DNA from: Octopus vulgaris
Taxonomy: Eukaryota
Direction of reading: 5' to 3'
Assembly: GCA_951406725.2 (NCBI GenBank)
Contig: OX597832.1
Location: 59,334,001 to 59,398,000 of the forward strand
DNA: 64,000 nucleotides
In this document: piece by piece, positions 8,821 through 55,308 of the stretch
Position numbering within the stretch: position 1 is the first letter of the stretch
Layout: the number at the start of each line of letters is the position of its first letter
Program-made: the position numbers and the translations under genes
The notes under the pieces: generated by a model
The model's database searches: none
Told to the model about the DNA's origin: nothing
What the model saw: only the letters and a program-made list of their open reading frames with translations

Positions 8821-9095
8821 ATAAAGGATCGTGGGTAAGGCCAGTACAATGCAAACTAAATGCAAGGCAAATCACAAGTAAACAAATATATGAATTAATG
8901 TAGACTTACCTTGTATTCAATATTTCGGGGTTATGAACCCATTTTCAAGAAATATTGAATGCAAGGTAAGTCTACATTAATTTATATATTTGTTTTCTTT
9001 GGATTTGCCTTGTATTTATTTTGCATTGTACTGGCCCCATAATCCTTTATGCAATATATTCGGTACAATGCTTCATAGTAATTATTCCATTATAA
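8821..9095. mobile_element. Fold-back element (about 105-bp inverted arms, 8821-9050) with a hammerhead-like centre, in (TA)n
   Basis: Arms ataaaggat...ttcaatatttc and gaaatattgaa...atcctttat. Minus strand at about 8914-8953: ttc-TTGAAAA-T-GGGTT-cat-AACCCC-GAA-ATAT-T-gaa. Confidence 0.7.
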
Positions 9096-9192
9096 TATAT
9101 ATATATATATATATATATATATATATATATATATATATATATATATATATATGTATGTATATGTATGTATGTATGAATGTATGTATGTATAT

Positions 9193-9610
9193 AGGCGTAG
9201 GAGTGGTTGTGTGGTACGAAGCTTGCTTCCCAACCTCGTGGTTCCAAGTTCCAGGTTCAGTCCGACTGCGTGGCACCTTGGACAAGTCTCTTCTACTATA
9301 GCTTCGGGCCGACCAAAGCCTTATGAGTGGATTTGGCAGACGGAAATTGAAAGAAGCCCGTCGTATATATATATATATATATGTGTGTGTGTGTGTGTGT
9401 GTGTGTGTGTGTGTGTGTGTGTATGTGTGCCTGTTCCCACACATCACCACTTGACAACCGCGTTAACTTAGCAGTTCGGCAAGAGTGACCGACAGAAAAA
9501 GCACCAGTCTTGAAAGGTAAGTATTGGAGTCGATTCATTCGTCTAAAATCCCTTCAAGGCGCGGGGCTCTAGCGTGGCTGCAGTCTAATGACTGAAACAG
9601 GTAAGCGATT
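9193..9610 (+). mobile_element. SINE family C (CORE-like central motif, internal (TA)n(TG)n)
   Basis: ggcgtaggagtggttgtgtggta..ggttcagtcc.actgcgtggcaccttgg(g)caagt..gaaagaagcccgtcg-(TA)n(TG)n-..aatgactgaaaca. Other copies at about 2240-2445, 7155-7475 (inverted pair), 16107-16266, 23085-23275(-), 25509-25935, 29323-29660, 32490-32715, 36485-36600, 39820-40020, 51019-51420, 58965-59098(-) and 61335-61450(-). Confidence 0.8.
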
Positions 9611-10288
9611 AAAGCTCTCTCTCTCTCTCTCTCTCTCTCTCTCTATATATATATATATATATATATATATATATATATATATATATATATATATATATAT
9701 ACACACACACACCACATATATATATATGCTTCTTATGTATGCACGTCATGTCGTTTATAGATTCGTGTACGTCATCATATCTGCATGTATCTTGTAACTA
9801 TATATAAGCTTGTACACATCTAATTCATCTTCATTTCCTCTAATTGTACTATTTCCGGTTCTTCAATTACACTGGCTTTGTTACAATTTCCATATTTCTA
9901 GCTGAACTTTAATCCACTTTGGTGGGGTTCCGACTCTGACTACTATCGTCTATCAGTATACGATACAGTATTGACAGTGCTGTAGTTCTAACAATGACTG
10001 CTGCCAAACACTGTTTGGTTAGGGTGGGTCGTTCTCAACGGAAATGCCGAATATATTAAAATTTGTAAAGATGGTCTGCAATTTGGTAGCATGTAGAGAC
10101 TAGAAACAAAAGATAGATAGTAATTAAGAATTGCATTAAGACGGTGAGCTGATAGAACCGCTAGTTTGCCGAACAAAATGATTAGCGGTATATCGTCCGT
10201 GTTTATGTTCTGAGTTCAAATTCCGCCTCGGCCGTTTTTGTCTTTTATTTTTAATGTAATCGACTTACCTCATACTCGAAACTGTTGG

Positions 10289-10666
10289 TCGCAATGGCCC
10301 AGTGGTTAGGGCAGCGGACTCGCGGTCATAGGATCGCAGTTTCGATTCCCAGACCGGGCGTTGTGAGTGTTTATTGAGCGAAAACACCTAAAGCTCCACG
10401 AGGCTCCGGCAGGGGATGGTGGTGATCCCTGCTGTACTCTTTCACCACAACTTTCTCTCACTCTTACTTCCTGTTTCTGTTGTGCCTGTATTTCAAAGGG
10501 CCGGCCTTGTCACTCTCTGTGTCACGCTGAATATCCCCGAGAACTACGTTAAGGGTACACGTGTCTGTGGAGTGCTCAGCCACTTACACGTTAATTTCAC
10601 GAGCAGGCTGTTCCGTTGATTCGGATCAACCGGAATCCTCGTCGTCGTAACCGACGGAGTGCTTCC
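10289..10666 (+). mobile_element. tRNA-derived SINE family B
   Basis: gcaatggcccagtggttagggcagcggactcgcggtc..gtttcgattcccagaccgggcg (A/B boxes) plus a shared body gagcgaaaacacctaaagctccacgaggctccggcag. Confidence 0.85.
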
Positions 10667-11241
10667 ATCCAGGTCTTTTGCCAAAATTTGAAAATAATAT
10701 TCAAATAAGTTCTTCCGTAAAGCGGCGATGTAGTAGAACCGTTAGCAAGCTTGGAAAAATACCTAGCAGTATTTCGCCAGTCTTGATGTTCTGAGTTCAA
10801 ATTCCGCCGTGGTCGACTTTGTCTTTCATCTTTAATGTAATCGACTTACCTCATACTCGAAATTGCTGGCCTTGTGCCAAAATTTGAAATTAAGAGTAAG
10901 AATATACAGGCCTTATACTAATTTTGAATTTTGAATATACGGCCTCTTACTCCATTTCGAAATATCCTTGGATCGAAACTCCACTACGTTCAATATTATT
11001 TTCCTTCGTTACCAAAAATTATATGGAGCAAAGATCTTTTACCAGCCTCAGACAATAGACATTCTATAGTTATGCTTTGCTAGGTCTTACCTGGAATAAA
11101 ATAGAATTTTGTACATTAAGTGGTATTTTCCGATGTGCAATTCTAGTAAGAAGACTAAGAATATATTTTTCTACCAGGAATACCGCTGCACTTTAGTTCT
11201 CTTCAGTCGAAGGATTATTCGGTGCTAATGAACCACAAGTG

Positions 11242-11290
11242 TGACGTAATGCGCTGAGAGAGATGGCGGAAGTTACGTCAGGCGGGCGAG
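11242..11290. promoter_or_regulatory. Candidate promoter motif cluster (CRE/ATF x2, YY1, ETS, GC box)
   Basis: TGACGTAA (11242), AGATGGCGG (11261), CGGAAGT (11267), TTACGTCA (11273) and GGCGGG (11281) within 50 bp of non-repetitive, CpG-rich sequence. Confidence 0.45.
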
Positions 11291-52497: not shown

Positions 52498-52985
52498 ATA
52501 AATAAATATGTATGGATGAATGGATGTATATATGTCTATCTATCTCTCTATTTGCCCATCTATCTATATATTTTTTTGAGTGTGTGTGTGGGGAGAGAGA
52601 GAGAGAGATAGAAAAAGAGACAGAGAGATAGAAAATATGACAGAGGTGGGGTACAATGGTTCATATAAACAGATAAAAAAACATTGGGTTTTAATTTACA
52701 AAATATATGCAAAAAGGGAAGGCAGGCTTAAAATTTTCAGACGATTAACAATCAAGTATGGACAAATACATCATGTTCGTTTCTGCTGGAGAGCGTAGGC
52801 TCGAAACATAAAAAGACATTCTTACCTTCCTGAGCGGCAAACTAATACCCCTGCTTGTTGTTTATACACCTGTCTTCGTCTTTTGTTCTGAAAATTTCAA
52901 CTATATATATATATATATATATATATATATATATATATATATATATATATATATATATATATATATATATATATATATATATATA

Positions 52986-53165
52986 TATTGATAAAAACGG
53001 TAAGACAACAAAAGAAAGAAAGAGACCTCGATATTAAGTTATTAGAGGAATTTATTTGTAAATGTAATATGTAACAATTATTCGGTAGCAATGATAAAAC
53101 TTCGAGCTTTGGATGCCGAGGTGGAAATCCACGCTGCCATCTCTTCAGTTATCCGGCCATCGGAA
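52986..53165 (-). mobile_element. Element with a decayed hammerhead (53093-53153), homologous to 36881-37075
   Basis: Reverse complement: GATAA-CTGAAGA-GATG..gtggatttccac..CATC-c-aaagctcgaagt-t-TTATC (GAAA mutated). Ends in (TA)n. Confidence 0.65.
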
Positions 53166-53377
53166 AAATGCTATGAAAAATGACCGTTATACAAAGGGAA
53201 ATTACTGTGCGATTGACCGTTATAAAGACAAAAGAGCTATTCAAATGACTGCTAAGTAAGAGGAGGAAGTAAAGTAAGGGGGTAATAGCGACAAACACCA
53301 ACTGCCGCCATAAATAGAACAGCACAACCTAATTGGTACAGACTAGAGACCTGCCTTTTATAACGGAGAAAGCCTTA

Positions 53378-53995
53378 AGGCAGACGAAATACCTATTTCT
53401 TTACTACCCACAAGGGGCTAAACATAGAAGGGACAAACAAGGACAGACAAACAGATTAACTCGATTATATCGACCCCAGTGCGTAACTGGTATTTATTTA
53501 ATCGACCTCGATAGGATGAACGTCAAAGTCTACCTCGGCGGAATTTGAACTCAGAACGTAGCGACAAACGAAATACCCATTTCTTTCCTACCCACAAGGG
53601 GCTAAAAACAGAGAGGACAAACAAGGACAGAAAAACAGATTAAGTCGATTATATCGATCCCAGTGCGTAACTAGTACTTATTTAATCGACCCCGAAAGGA
53701 TGAAAGGCAAAGTCGACCTCGGCGGAATTTGAACTCAGAACATAACGGCAGACGAAATACCCATTTCTTTACTGCCCACAAGGGGCTAAACACAGAGAGG
53801 ACAAACAAGGACAGAAAAACGGATTAAGTCGATTATATCGATCCCAGTGCGTAACTAGTACTTATTTAATCGACCCCGAAAGGATGAAAGGCAAAGTCGA
53901 CCTCAGCGGAATTTGAACTCAGAACGTAACCACAGACGAAATACTGCTAAGCATTGCGCCCGGCGTGCTAGCGTATCTGGCAGGTCGCCATCTTC
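53378..53995 (-). mobile_element. SINE family A trimer
   Basis: Three approximately 185-bp bodies with the head at about 53950-53995. Confidence 0.85.
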
Positions 53996-54780
53996 GAGGC
54001 ACTTACAGACGTGTATTACAACTTTAAGCAAATGCTTACCAGCCTTTTTTTTTTATAGCAGAATATGGTAGAAAAATGTGTTGTTTATTTTTTTTACAAA
54101 GGCCATTATGTATCACATAACAACACTCACAGTACGTTATAGGTACGTTATTACGTATGTAGCACTATAATATATGATATGTCACTCCGTTAACACGTTA
54201 CCGGATGAGGTGTTGCAGATAATAATATGGAACGGGGAAACAGTTACGTTGGTTTTTCTCGTTGATTCGTGAAATTTATGGTCCTTGCTGGGGAGGAAAA
54301 TACAAGAACATTTTATCATTACTATTATTATTATCCTTATCCGCATCATCACCATCACCATCATCATCATCATCATCATCATCATTATCACTATTATATA
54401 AATGTACGTACGAGTATGCATTTGTGTGTCTGTATGTATTTGTAAATGTGTGTATTTGTGTGTATTTGTATGTGTGTGTGAGTTAGTGTGCTTGTGTGTG
54501 TGTGTGTGTATTGATGCGTGTGTGTATATGAGTAGATACTGTTTAATATTTTTTGTATTTCAATTTCTTCTTCATTGTTTTTTTTCTCGAGTATTCTTTT
54601 AAAATAAATATTACTTATATCCTTCTGGGATCGATAAAATAACCTTGCAGTCAGAAACTGAAGGAGAGTCAAATCAATTGTGCACACTTTAAAAAATTTG
54701 AAATATATGATCTTAAGTCAAAACCAAAAATCAATATTTTCGGAATATGCGACTGCAATGAAGATACATAAAATATAGAC

Positions 54781-55308
54781 AATACTGGTGGTGTAAAGAT
54801 TATTTGCCAACATAACATGGCAGTCCTGGTTTAGGACGAACGTTGCTGTAATTACGGCAACATTCGTCCTAAACCAGGACTGCCATGTTATGATGGCAAA
54901 TAATGTTTACTCCAAAGTACTGTTATGAGATTTACAAATAGTAATTTTCTAATTCATAGATCAGTGTCTAGTTTTCACTTTGAAAACCATATATTTCGAA
55001 CGGGAATTTGGCAGGGCTACCTCAGGCCGAACAATTATTCTGTGCTGATGAAGGGAAATAACCCGGAAATCGCGATCCACAGACATTGTTTTGAGCTGAG
55101 TGCGGGTGCTAGATTCCCTTGTTCAAAAAATATAAAGATACAGATCGTGTCGTATAGCCAGCTGGAGACGATGCCTCCTGAGGCTAAATTACAGCAACAT
55201 TCGTCCTAAACCAGGACTGCTATGTTATGTTGGCAAAAAATCTTTGCTCCAAAGTACTTTTGCTGAATATCTCTCGTTGTGAGATTTACAAATAGTAATT
55301 TTCTAATA
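54781..55308. mobile_element. 337-bp retrozyme-like unit (about 1.3 copies) with an inverted 5' segment
   Basis: Palindrome at 54781-54920 (axis 54851/54852). cattcgtcctaaaccaggac repeats at 54861 and 55198. Hammerhead at 55039-55083. Confidence 0.8.
55039..55083 (+). ncRNA. Minimal type-I hammerhead ribozyme
   Basis: TCTGTG-CTGATGA-A-GGG-aaataa-CCC-G-GAA-ATCGCGAT-C-CACAGA; 6-bp stem I, palindromic stem III, AUC cleavage triplet. Confidence 0.8.

Follow-up and report, generated by a model that had tools for sequence, protein, structure and literature searches.

Two-armed inverted insertions of hammerhead-bearing repeats in TA microsatellites of Octopus vulgaris, probably primed on both target strands

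A 64,000-nucleotide stretch of the Octopus vulgaris genome (assembly GCA_951406725.2, contig OX597832.1, positions 59,334,001 to 59,398,000; hereafter the window) read as animal-like DNA with many microsatellites. Five unrelated non-coding repeat families, here called A to E, lie in the window, each with a hammerhead-type motif, and six inverted junctions occur in them. TA, CA, or ATT repeats adjoin all six elements, and (TA)n is the insertion site of the hammerhead families. An original prediction, made from the letters of the window, held that such fold-backs recur in or beside the ribozyme, and proposed that complementary DNA (cDNA) folds back, or that the reverse transcriptase (RT) switches strand, at the ribozyme hairpin. 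We followed the families through the 2.8-Gb assembly from which the window comes and found the same two-armed architecture at well over 100 other loci on many contigs. The two arms of an insertion have different outer ends, both fixed: one is the tail terminus, and the other lies 60 to 130 nt upstream of it in the unit. Such insertions of non-coding hammerhead repeats in TA microsatellites probably arose when both cut target strands primed reverse transcription, with the repeats being retrozyme-like and short interspersed element (SINE)-like parasites of Penelope-like retrotransposons.

The motif scan found nine CTGANGA...GAAA core motifs in the window, against 2.2 expected. The family A motif reads CTGACGAG...GAAAC-AATT-GTC, and at 6300-6385 it matched the full Rfam Hammerhead_1 model (1-45) with 26.5 bits (E = 7.1e-5), short of the gathering score of 34. 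Family C carries CTGATGA-GGCTG...CAGCC-GAAACGTT, family D carries CTGATGA-GGG...CCC-GGAAATCGCGATC with an 8-nt palindrome as stem III, and family E has CTGAAGAG, a 13-bp GC-rich stem II, and then CGAAACTCGGAGTT. The core of family B is UUGAAAA, a U3:A8 variant, instead of the canonical CUGAUGA. At gathering scores Rfam gave zero matches in the whole window, and the family D motif had no Rfam match at an E value of 1 or below. Rfam matches at E values up to 10 were mostly microRNA-like, lay on microsatellites and palindromes, and were set aside as artefacts. Two of the inversion centers, 54810-54893 and 38354-38446, resemble microRNA precursors at sub-gathering scores (mir-2012, 59.9 bits, and MIR1523, 46 bits), and fold-back junctions of hammerhead elements could pass for microRNA hairpins.

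A short palindromic stem III is present in all five families. Such a stem III is a hallmark of the dimeric hammerheads of Penelope-like elements, and excerpts of PMC7229834 agree with a palindromic stem III in dimeric Penelope-type hammerheads. Families A and D form tandem units of 536 and 337 bp, with one hammerhead motif per unit. This is the organization of retrozymes, with a type I hammerhead in each tandem unit of about 150 to 450 bp and low GC content, the family A unit being slightly longer than that range. Families E and B are single-unit elements and lack the tandem organization of non-long terminal repeat (non-LTR) retrozymes.

The window was compared with itself by BLAST, and exact-match maps and reading of the sequence were used to place the junctions. 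Reverse-complement self-matches fell at 6116-6367, 8821-9050 (83%), 36854-37028 (85%), 37098-39700 (97.8%), 46913-47306 (75%), and 54779-54923 (89%); an additional one at 7152-7474 was microsatellite-like. All six junctions are head to head, and the 3' ends of the sense strand point outward on both sides of each, as had been predicted. At 6300/6301, the plus arm begins in the 5' strand of stem I, where the prediction placed it, 5 nt ahead of the core. The break of the minus arm lies 125 nt upstream of the ribozyme, so the junction is not a symmetric palindrome. Between 6106 and 6116 the minus arm has lost internal sequence, and its stretch 6116-6300 matches the reverse complement of 6720-6904 at 100% identity. 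The family B arms do meet at the edge of stem I and the core: the minus arm stops at this edge (8949-8953), sharing 5 nt of microhomology with the plus arm, which starts from GAAAT. The family A arms near 38385 join inside stem II through AATG, and the family E junction at 36941/2 sits in the 3' strand of stem II, both as first described. The center of the latter is a CG-overlap palindrome, GGATGCC/GGCATCC; the 122-bp palindrome reported there was not reproduced, the arms being about 87 nt each. Other family E copies run on upstream into native core and stem II (loose ends of short-read contigs). The divergent pair of family C arms at 46913-47342, with (ATT)n between them, was recovered, and the family D junction at 54851/2 indeed lies outside the ribozyme, 188 nt upstream of the next ribozyme's stem I. 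The ribozyme is touched by four of the six junctions, a count that with six junctions alone is not beyond chance. A target-site duplication, AATACTGGT, at both ends of the family D insertion was considered and is not claimed, being probably part of the diverged inverted arm. Similar words stand at the ends of this insertion, AATACTGGTGGT (54781-54793) and AATACTGGTAGT (55306-55318), and could be either a target-site duplication or a diverged inverted arm. The coordinates of the arms are collected in Table 1.

Table 1. Arms, hammerheads, and junctions of families A to E in the window
Feature	Coordinates	Strand	Details
Family A inverted arm	6083..6300	-	Outer end is tail terminus q318 at 6083, inner end q368; BLAST to unit trimer, exact-match map
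Family A direct arm	6301..7118	+	About 1.5 units, q488 (stem I 5' strand) to non-tail terminus in (TA)n
Family A hammerhead	6300..6385	+	Core CTGACGAG at 6306, GAAAC-AATT-GTC, cleavage predicted after 6378; Rfam, motif scan
Family B arm without tail	8821..8953	-	UUGAAAA (U3:A8-type) hammerhead-like motif; locus L233
Family B arm with 3' tail	8949..9089	+	Begins at ribozyme GAAAT; junction is 5-nt GAAAT/ATTTC overlap
Family E arm	36854..36941	-	q281>q213; non-tail terminus ...ACATTTACA adjoins (TA)n; inner end in stem II 3' strand
Family E arm with 60-nt tail	36942..37069	+	q213>q341
Family A arm	37098..38390	-	2.4 units, non-tail outer end; minus-strand hammerheads 37298-37365, 37831-37898
Family A arm	38391..39801	+	2.65 units, tail outer end q318 at 39796; hammerheads 38902-38972, 39438-39505
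Family A junction	38385..38410		Inside hammerhead stem II; AATG microhomology, 19 nt between arms
Family C arm	46913..47055	-	Decayed hammerhead, core ACGAAGA
(ATT)n microsatellite separating family C arms	47056..47195		(ATT)n also precedes family C copy at 46621
Family C arm	47196..47342	+	Hammerhead core CTGAAGA at 47213, 17 nt past microsatellite
Family E full-length non-inverted copy	52990..53285	-	Reference for native sequence (WE2)
Family D short inverted arm	54779..54851	-	q72>q336/1
Family D direct arm	54852..55307	+	1.35 units of 337 bp, ends near q102
Family D hammerhead	55040-55082	+	CTGATGA at 55045, stem III palindrome ATCGCGAT

The window's own family A, B, and E junctions each combine one tail terminus with one non-tail terminus. 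In the family A pair at 37098-39801, perfect complementarity links the innermost 856 nt of the minus arm (37535-38390) to 38946-39801, the part of the plus arm one unit further out; between mirror-image units identity is only 98%. This one-unit-shifted perfect match indicates that, on a shared multimeric template, the minus arm reached one unit further downstream and the plus arm one unit further upstream. Each arm therefore holds sequence that the other lacks, which fits two cDNAs with their own priming sites on one multimeric RNA or on two identical ones.

Across the genome, family A was scored on its 536-bp unit (window 38410-38945), in which the ribozyme takes up q481-536 and q1-39, or 17.7%; the unit has at least 231 matches at 99 to 100% identity. 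BLAST-top samples, drawn for families A, E, B, and D, favor long or full-length copies. Because these loci are picked by score, a second family A sample was drawn without regard to internal structure, namely the first 80 in genome order of 790 occurrences of the q318-terminus plus TA pattern. Families E and B were also resampled by terminus patterns; family D is represented by its BLAST-top sample.

Among the BLAST-top family A loci, 28 of 37 were inverted, all head to head and none tail to tail. One arm ends at q318 (...TTAATTAATTATA) and its partner near q188, both entering (TA)n. A q318 end was paired with a q187-222 end in 26 of the 28, the remainder being L015, which adjoins Ns, and L025, with an ambiguous outer end, and the outer flanks were (TA)n or TA-rich at almost every terminus printed for these loci. 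The unbiased sample yielded 56 inverted loci out of 80, giving 54 independent junctions, and 24 plain 5'-truncated copies. Here the partner arm ended at q176-188 in 46 junctions and in one at q225, where the alignment ran on into TA; three ends lay beyond the fetched range, four elsewhere, and none at q318. The inner junction varies among loci, and both outer ends adjoin (TA)n. Three loci on one contig (L042, L095, and L097 on C1) share the junction q72/q16 with a 7-nt filler, two of them with equal arm lengths; as segmental duplicates or re-copied composites they were counted as one event. At L039 (C1:3926125-3932525, oriented), a second family A arm starts by its non-tail end about 40 nt of (TA)n past the tail end, which looks like two insertions in one microsatellite.

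These termini bear directly on how the arms arose. A single cDNA that snaps back must copy itself to the first cDNA's own start, and it predicts a common outer terminus with one arm contained in the other. Neither was seen: the arms end at different fixed termini everywhere, so simple snap-back cannot yield the insertion, and it was rejected. The palindromes might also have formed after insertion at the DNA level, by fork switching or break repair at short inverted repeats, or be artefacts of assembly. Large palindromes can grow from short inverted repeats like stem II, some arms show 100% identity, and short-read contigs on 36700-38700 (three sets, pieces of 60 to 110 nt) bridge neither junction with unique flanks. 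However, the inverted arms reach no further than element termini in (TA)n, without any unique flank, their two ends invariably belong to different fixed types, all are oriented head to head, and the arrangement recurs at more than 100 loci on many contigs. Moreover, four window palindromes have arms diverged to 75 to 89% identity; they are old, as is not expected of assembly error. We consider an origin of this kind highly improbable, and a DNA-level fold-back duplication or Foldback-type transposon was rejected in particular because the matches stop at element ends and the outer termini are two different sequences. That the inversions are made at integration, by one common Penelope-type mechanism involving a strand switch, is supported by the head-to-head orientation, the arms stopping at termini in (TA)n, and the number of loci. 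This much of the original prediction stood, and the fold-back of a single cDNA fell to the differing termini.

The prediction had also proposed plotting breakpoints against the hammerhead, and this was run on the genomic copies. In the unbiased family A sample, the ribozyme held a breakpoint in 17 of 54 junctions against 17.4 expected (p = 0.60), or in 20 against 20.7 when a margin of 10 nt was allowed on either side. Counted singly, 23 of 108 breakpoints fell in the ribozyme, with 19.1 expected, and in the BLAST-top sample it was touched in 11 of 28 junctions (9.0 expected). The breakpoint profile is uneven (chi-square p = 3e-4), tracking the distance from the two termini, and short arms are commonest. 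The only local peak lies outside the ribozyme, at q266-275, where 8 of 54 junctions have the start of the tail arm and 1.0 would be expected. This segment (e.g., window 38675-38684) is the 5' base of a small hairpin, ATACTA...TAGTAT, beside an ATATA run; the starts are those of L039, L053, L079, L082, L085, L102, L110, and L117, and two plain copies start nearby. A long imperfect natural inverted repeat occupies q395-470 (window 38804-38879), just upstream of the ribozyme, and 7 of 108 breakpoints, counted by eye, lie at q428-437, against about 2 expected. The 536-nt unit folds almost throughout into local hairpins, and a comparison of breakpoints with hairpins is without power.

Two further features of the family A junctions concern the joining of the arms. 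In the unbiased sample, the two breakpoints lay 50 nt or less apart in 28 of 54 junctions against 10.2 expected (p = 5e-8), and in 16 of these 28 the tail arm was longer by about 130 nt, the distance between the termini. Both the near-symmetry and the longer tail arm are expected if two cDNAs reach the same RNA end; near-symmetry was not seen in the score-chosen long arrays (6 of 28). Microhomology of 0 to 6 nt was present at 29 of 54 junctions and filler at 25, overlaps and short fillers that suit a template jump onto the other cDNA.

Family D was scored at 39 loci with BLAST-level coordinates, and its terminus classes are fuzzy. Inversion, head to head, was found at 30 of the 39, and 27 of these pair an end at q73 or q100-105 with an end at q35-67. 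The ribozyme held a breakpoint in 11 of the 30 junctions, against 8.4 expected (p = 0.19).

The two short families gave a different result. The score-chosen family E sample is mostly full-length single units, with an inverted neighbor in 3 of 40. By terminus pattern, 13 of 20 tail-anchored and 22 of 30 non-tail-anchored family E loci were inverted; the outer end of the partner arm lay at q273-281 in 12 of the 13 (L192 is truncated) and at q335-341 in the 22. A breakpoint fell inside the 62-nt ribozyme in 21 of 35 junctions (14.6 expected, p = 0.02), in the 31 nt directly upstream of it in 20 of 35 (7.8 expected), and in one or the other in 33 of 35 (20.5 expected, p = 2e-6). Ends inside the ribozyme were found for 30 of 70 inverted arms versus 1 of 14 plain truncated copies (Fisher p = 0.014). 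The 31 nt upstream of stem I held 25 of 70 inverted-arm and 4 of 14 plain ends, and only 4 of 70 inverted-arm ends lay further upstream, though full-length copies (5' end q46) are common. Within the ribozyme, the breakpoints spread over stem I, the core, stem II, and stem III, with no pile-up at a single hairpin.

The non-tail terminus of family B has nine other exact matches in the genome, of which six are inverted, five of these six with a breakpoint in the ribozyme. Ends recur at r261-264 and r288-290; these positions form the two sides of an ATTTC/GAAAT inverted repeat that encloses the core and stem II, and the window's own family B junction uses the same pair. In the score-chosen sample, 8 of 20 loci were inverted, with seven simple junctions and a complex one at L137. 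Six of the seven lie between 41 nt upstream of the ribozyme and the ribozyme's 5' edge, and the seventh breaks 24 nt upstream and 18 nt past the motif. Plain family B copies are full length or end 5 to 70 nt upstream of the ribozyme.

One segment, running from GAAA through stem III to 5 nt past the cleavage site, was compared in all samples. It held 9 of 108 family A breakpoints in the terminus sample (3.4 expected) and 1 of 56 in the score sample (1.8 expected), 7 of 60 in family D (3.0 expected), and 11 of 70 in family E (4.8 expected). Families A and D together gave 17 of 224 against 8.2 (p = 0.005), and all samples gave 28 of 294 against 13.0. Since the segment was chosen after family E had been seen and the family D and E coordinates are BLAST level, this roughly twofold excess is treated as a lead only.

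We can now return to the proposal that one cDNA folds back, or RT switches strand, at the hammerhead hairpin, with the ribozyme setting the inversion point in all families. It accords with the four of six window junctions that touch the ribozyme, with the family E excess and the rarity of such ends in plain copies, with the five of six family B junctions in the ribozyme and their ATTTC/GAAAT ends, and with the twofold excess in a segment picked after the fact. As a general rule it is contradicted by families A and D, where breakpoints in the ribozyme did not go beyond chance, by the two different fixed termini, by the arms at 37098-39801 that each hold sequence lacking in the other, and by the scatter of family E breakpoints over all helices. 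We regard this proposal as quite unlikely, and the ribozyme probably does not cause fold-back in general. The part of the original prediction that placed the switch at the ribozyme found support in the short families E and B.

The pile-up in families E and B might merely mark the start of the template RNA, either a transcription start 10 to 30 nt upstream of the ribozyme or the end of a ribozyme-cut RNA, with the ribozyme helices playing no part in arm joining. The family E ends just upstream of stem I, shared by inverted arms and plain copies and seldom passed, are consistent with such a start, and so are the plain family B copies. A breakpoint at unit position 1-2 of family D occurs at 4 of 30 loci (L141, L148, L152, and L153) and at the window junction (q336/1), and two family A arms begin exactly at the predicted cleavage site, q28 (L077 and L116). 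On the other side, the upstream-zone ends scatter across about 25 nt, and ends inside the ribozyme are commoner in inverted arms (30 of 70) than in plain copies (1 of 14). A role as RNA start with nothing further is possible, but we rather doubt it. More speculatively, the ribozyme might have a second, DNA-level job, its helices serving where two same-sense cDNAs pair antiparallel and are joined; the main candidates for such pairing would be the palindromic stem III, through which these hammerheads can act as dimers, and the inverted repeats flanking the core. If true, helix pairing would explain the excess in families E and B, the twofold excess at the GAAA-stem III-cleavage site in families A and D, and the stem II junctions of the window, though on balance we think this joint reading fairly unlikely.

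Priming on both strands of the target would account for the arms as follows. On the RNA, each of the two 3' ends of the cut target would initiate a cDNA at a start site of its own, and both cDNAs would extend toward the 5' end of the RNA. The polymerase would then jump from the RNA to the other cDNA, with 0 to 6 nt of microhomology or a few filler bases, joining the arms. The junction would come to lie wherever both cDNAs end, which may be anywhere along the long multimeric templates of families A and D, and near-symmetric junctions would result when both run out at the same end of the RNA. For families E and B, it would lie in or just upstream of the ribozyme, where the ribozyme's inverted repeats would offer the two same-sense cDNAs a pairing place or, alternatively, where the template RNA starts. 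A Penelope-like protein in purified form cuts both strands of the DNA and extends them, and it reverse transcribes from two adjacent internal sites whose spacing equals the genomic tail, with ribozyme cleavage unneeded (PMC11167929). According to excerpts of PMC8557442, Penelope-like insertions are biased toward (TA)n, carry a tail on one side, and often have a 5'-truncated inverted copy next to them, and the cause is called undefined.

Several points weigh against this explanation. The window's only RT belongs to an APE-type long interspersed element (LINE), and no genome search was made for an autonomous Penelope-like element (RT plus GIY-YIG). If both cDNAs copied one RNA with the non-tail cDNA in the lead, the non-tail arm should always extend at least as far upstream as the tail arm, and both orders were observed. 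The strict occurrence of one terminus of each kind needs an extra assumption, such as one protein dimer on one RNA. The unit-register test could not distinguish a shared template from a mirror copy at 19 of 20 multi-unit loci, the array units being nearly identical. The junction excess in and near the ribozyme of families E and B is not predicted without an added cause. Finally, the jump onto a cDNA is proposed by analogy with R2-type enzymes and is not known for Penelope-like ones.

Elsewhere in the window, a scan of open reading frames with Pfam for a Penelope-like frame, made in the window and not in the genome, found only the APE-type LINE: two adjacent open frames at 19605-22569 (plus strand) with an endonuclease/exonuclease/phosphatase domain and RVT_1. 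A tandem repeat of about 184-bp period is abundant on both strands, its copies being 80 to 95% alike (25339-25500, 26576-27371, 45136-45766, 47660-47902, 53379-53994, and 61545-62307, among others), with no hammerhead core motif seen there.

The insertions can be set beside four known systems. In the twin priming of L1 that Ostertag and Kazazian reportedly described in 2001, a second priming on the other target strand yields an inverted 5' part. Second priming on the other strand, 3' ends pointing outward, and a microhomology junction would be common to both systems. In L1, however, the direct segment is said to start beside the internal priming site, whereas here the inner ends of both arms vary and the outer ends are fixed; inversion is also the majority outcome here, unlike in L1 (56 of 80 loci in family A, 30 of 39 in D, and 35 of 50 in E). 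Since the inner ends of the family A tail arms are spread over the unit, twin priming of the L1 type from a single RNA was dismissed as the exact mechanism. R2-type RTs, according to what Bibillo and Eickbush reportedly found, jump end to end between templates with little or no homology, sometimes adding a few extra bases. This matches the overlaps and short fillers seen here, with the difference that the acceptor would be the other cDNA.

A third system is that of endonuclease-positive Penelope-like elements (Penelope/Poseidon, Neptune, and Naiad; PMC8557442, PMC11167929). Inverted and partial tandem copies, which the original prediction took as established for these elements, are listed as typical in excerpts of PMC8557442, and partial tandem copies occur here also. 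Shared as well, as far as those excerpts go, are the adjacent inverted 5'-truncated copy, the tail at one end, and the AT-rich or (TA)n target bias, and in both systems the hammerhead lies upstream of the reverse-transcription start sites. The elements of the window differ in having no open reading frame and a tail of 60 to 130 nt, against 30 to 40 bp in the published excerpts; the cutting and extension of both target strands, observed in vitro for the Penelope-like protein, would be common to both. Metazoan non-LTR retrozymes (PMC7229834; bioRxiv 10.64898/2026.07.22.740005) have in common with them that they are non-coding, present in many copies, and of proposed Penelope pseudo-LTR (pLTR) origin; tandem arrays and RNA circles are described for retrozymes, and families E and B are single-unit and SINE-like instead. 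The word "inverted" is absent from the main text of PMC7229834.

The two-armed architecture itself is already known for Penelope-like elements. The position of inversion junctions relative to the ribozyme is not measured in the excerpts of PMC8557442 or PMC11167929, supplements apart, and our literature search found no paper tying Penelope-type inversions to the hammerhead or to twin priming. What is new here is that breakpoint position was tested against the ribozyme in four families, with a result that depends on the family. In excerpts of PMC8557442, the building of tandem and inverted Penelope-like insertions is still called undefined. Young, abundant non-coding families offer hundreds of independent insertions with ends and junctions readable to the base. 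These data argue for two primed cDNAs, one per target strand, each with its own start site, which matches one in vitro study, and they argue against a simple hairpin snap-back and against the ribozyme as a general inversion point. In families E and B, the junction excess near the ribozyme could reflect the start of the template RNA or a pairing role of the ribozyme's inverted repeats.

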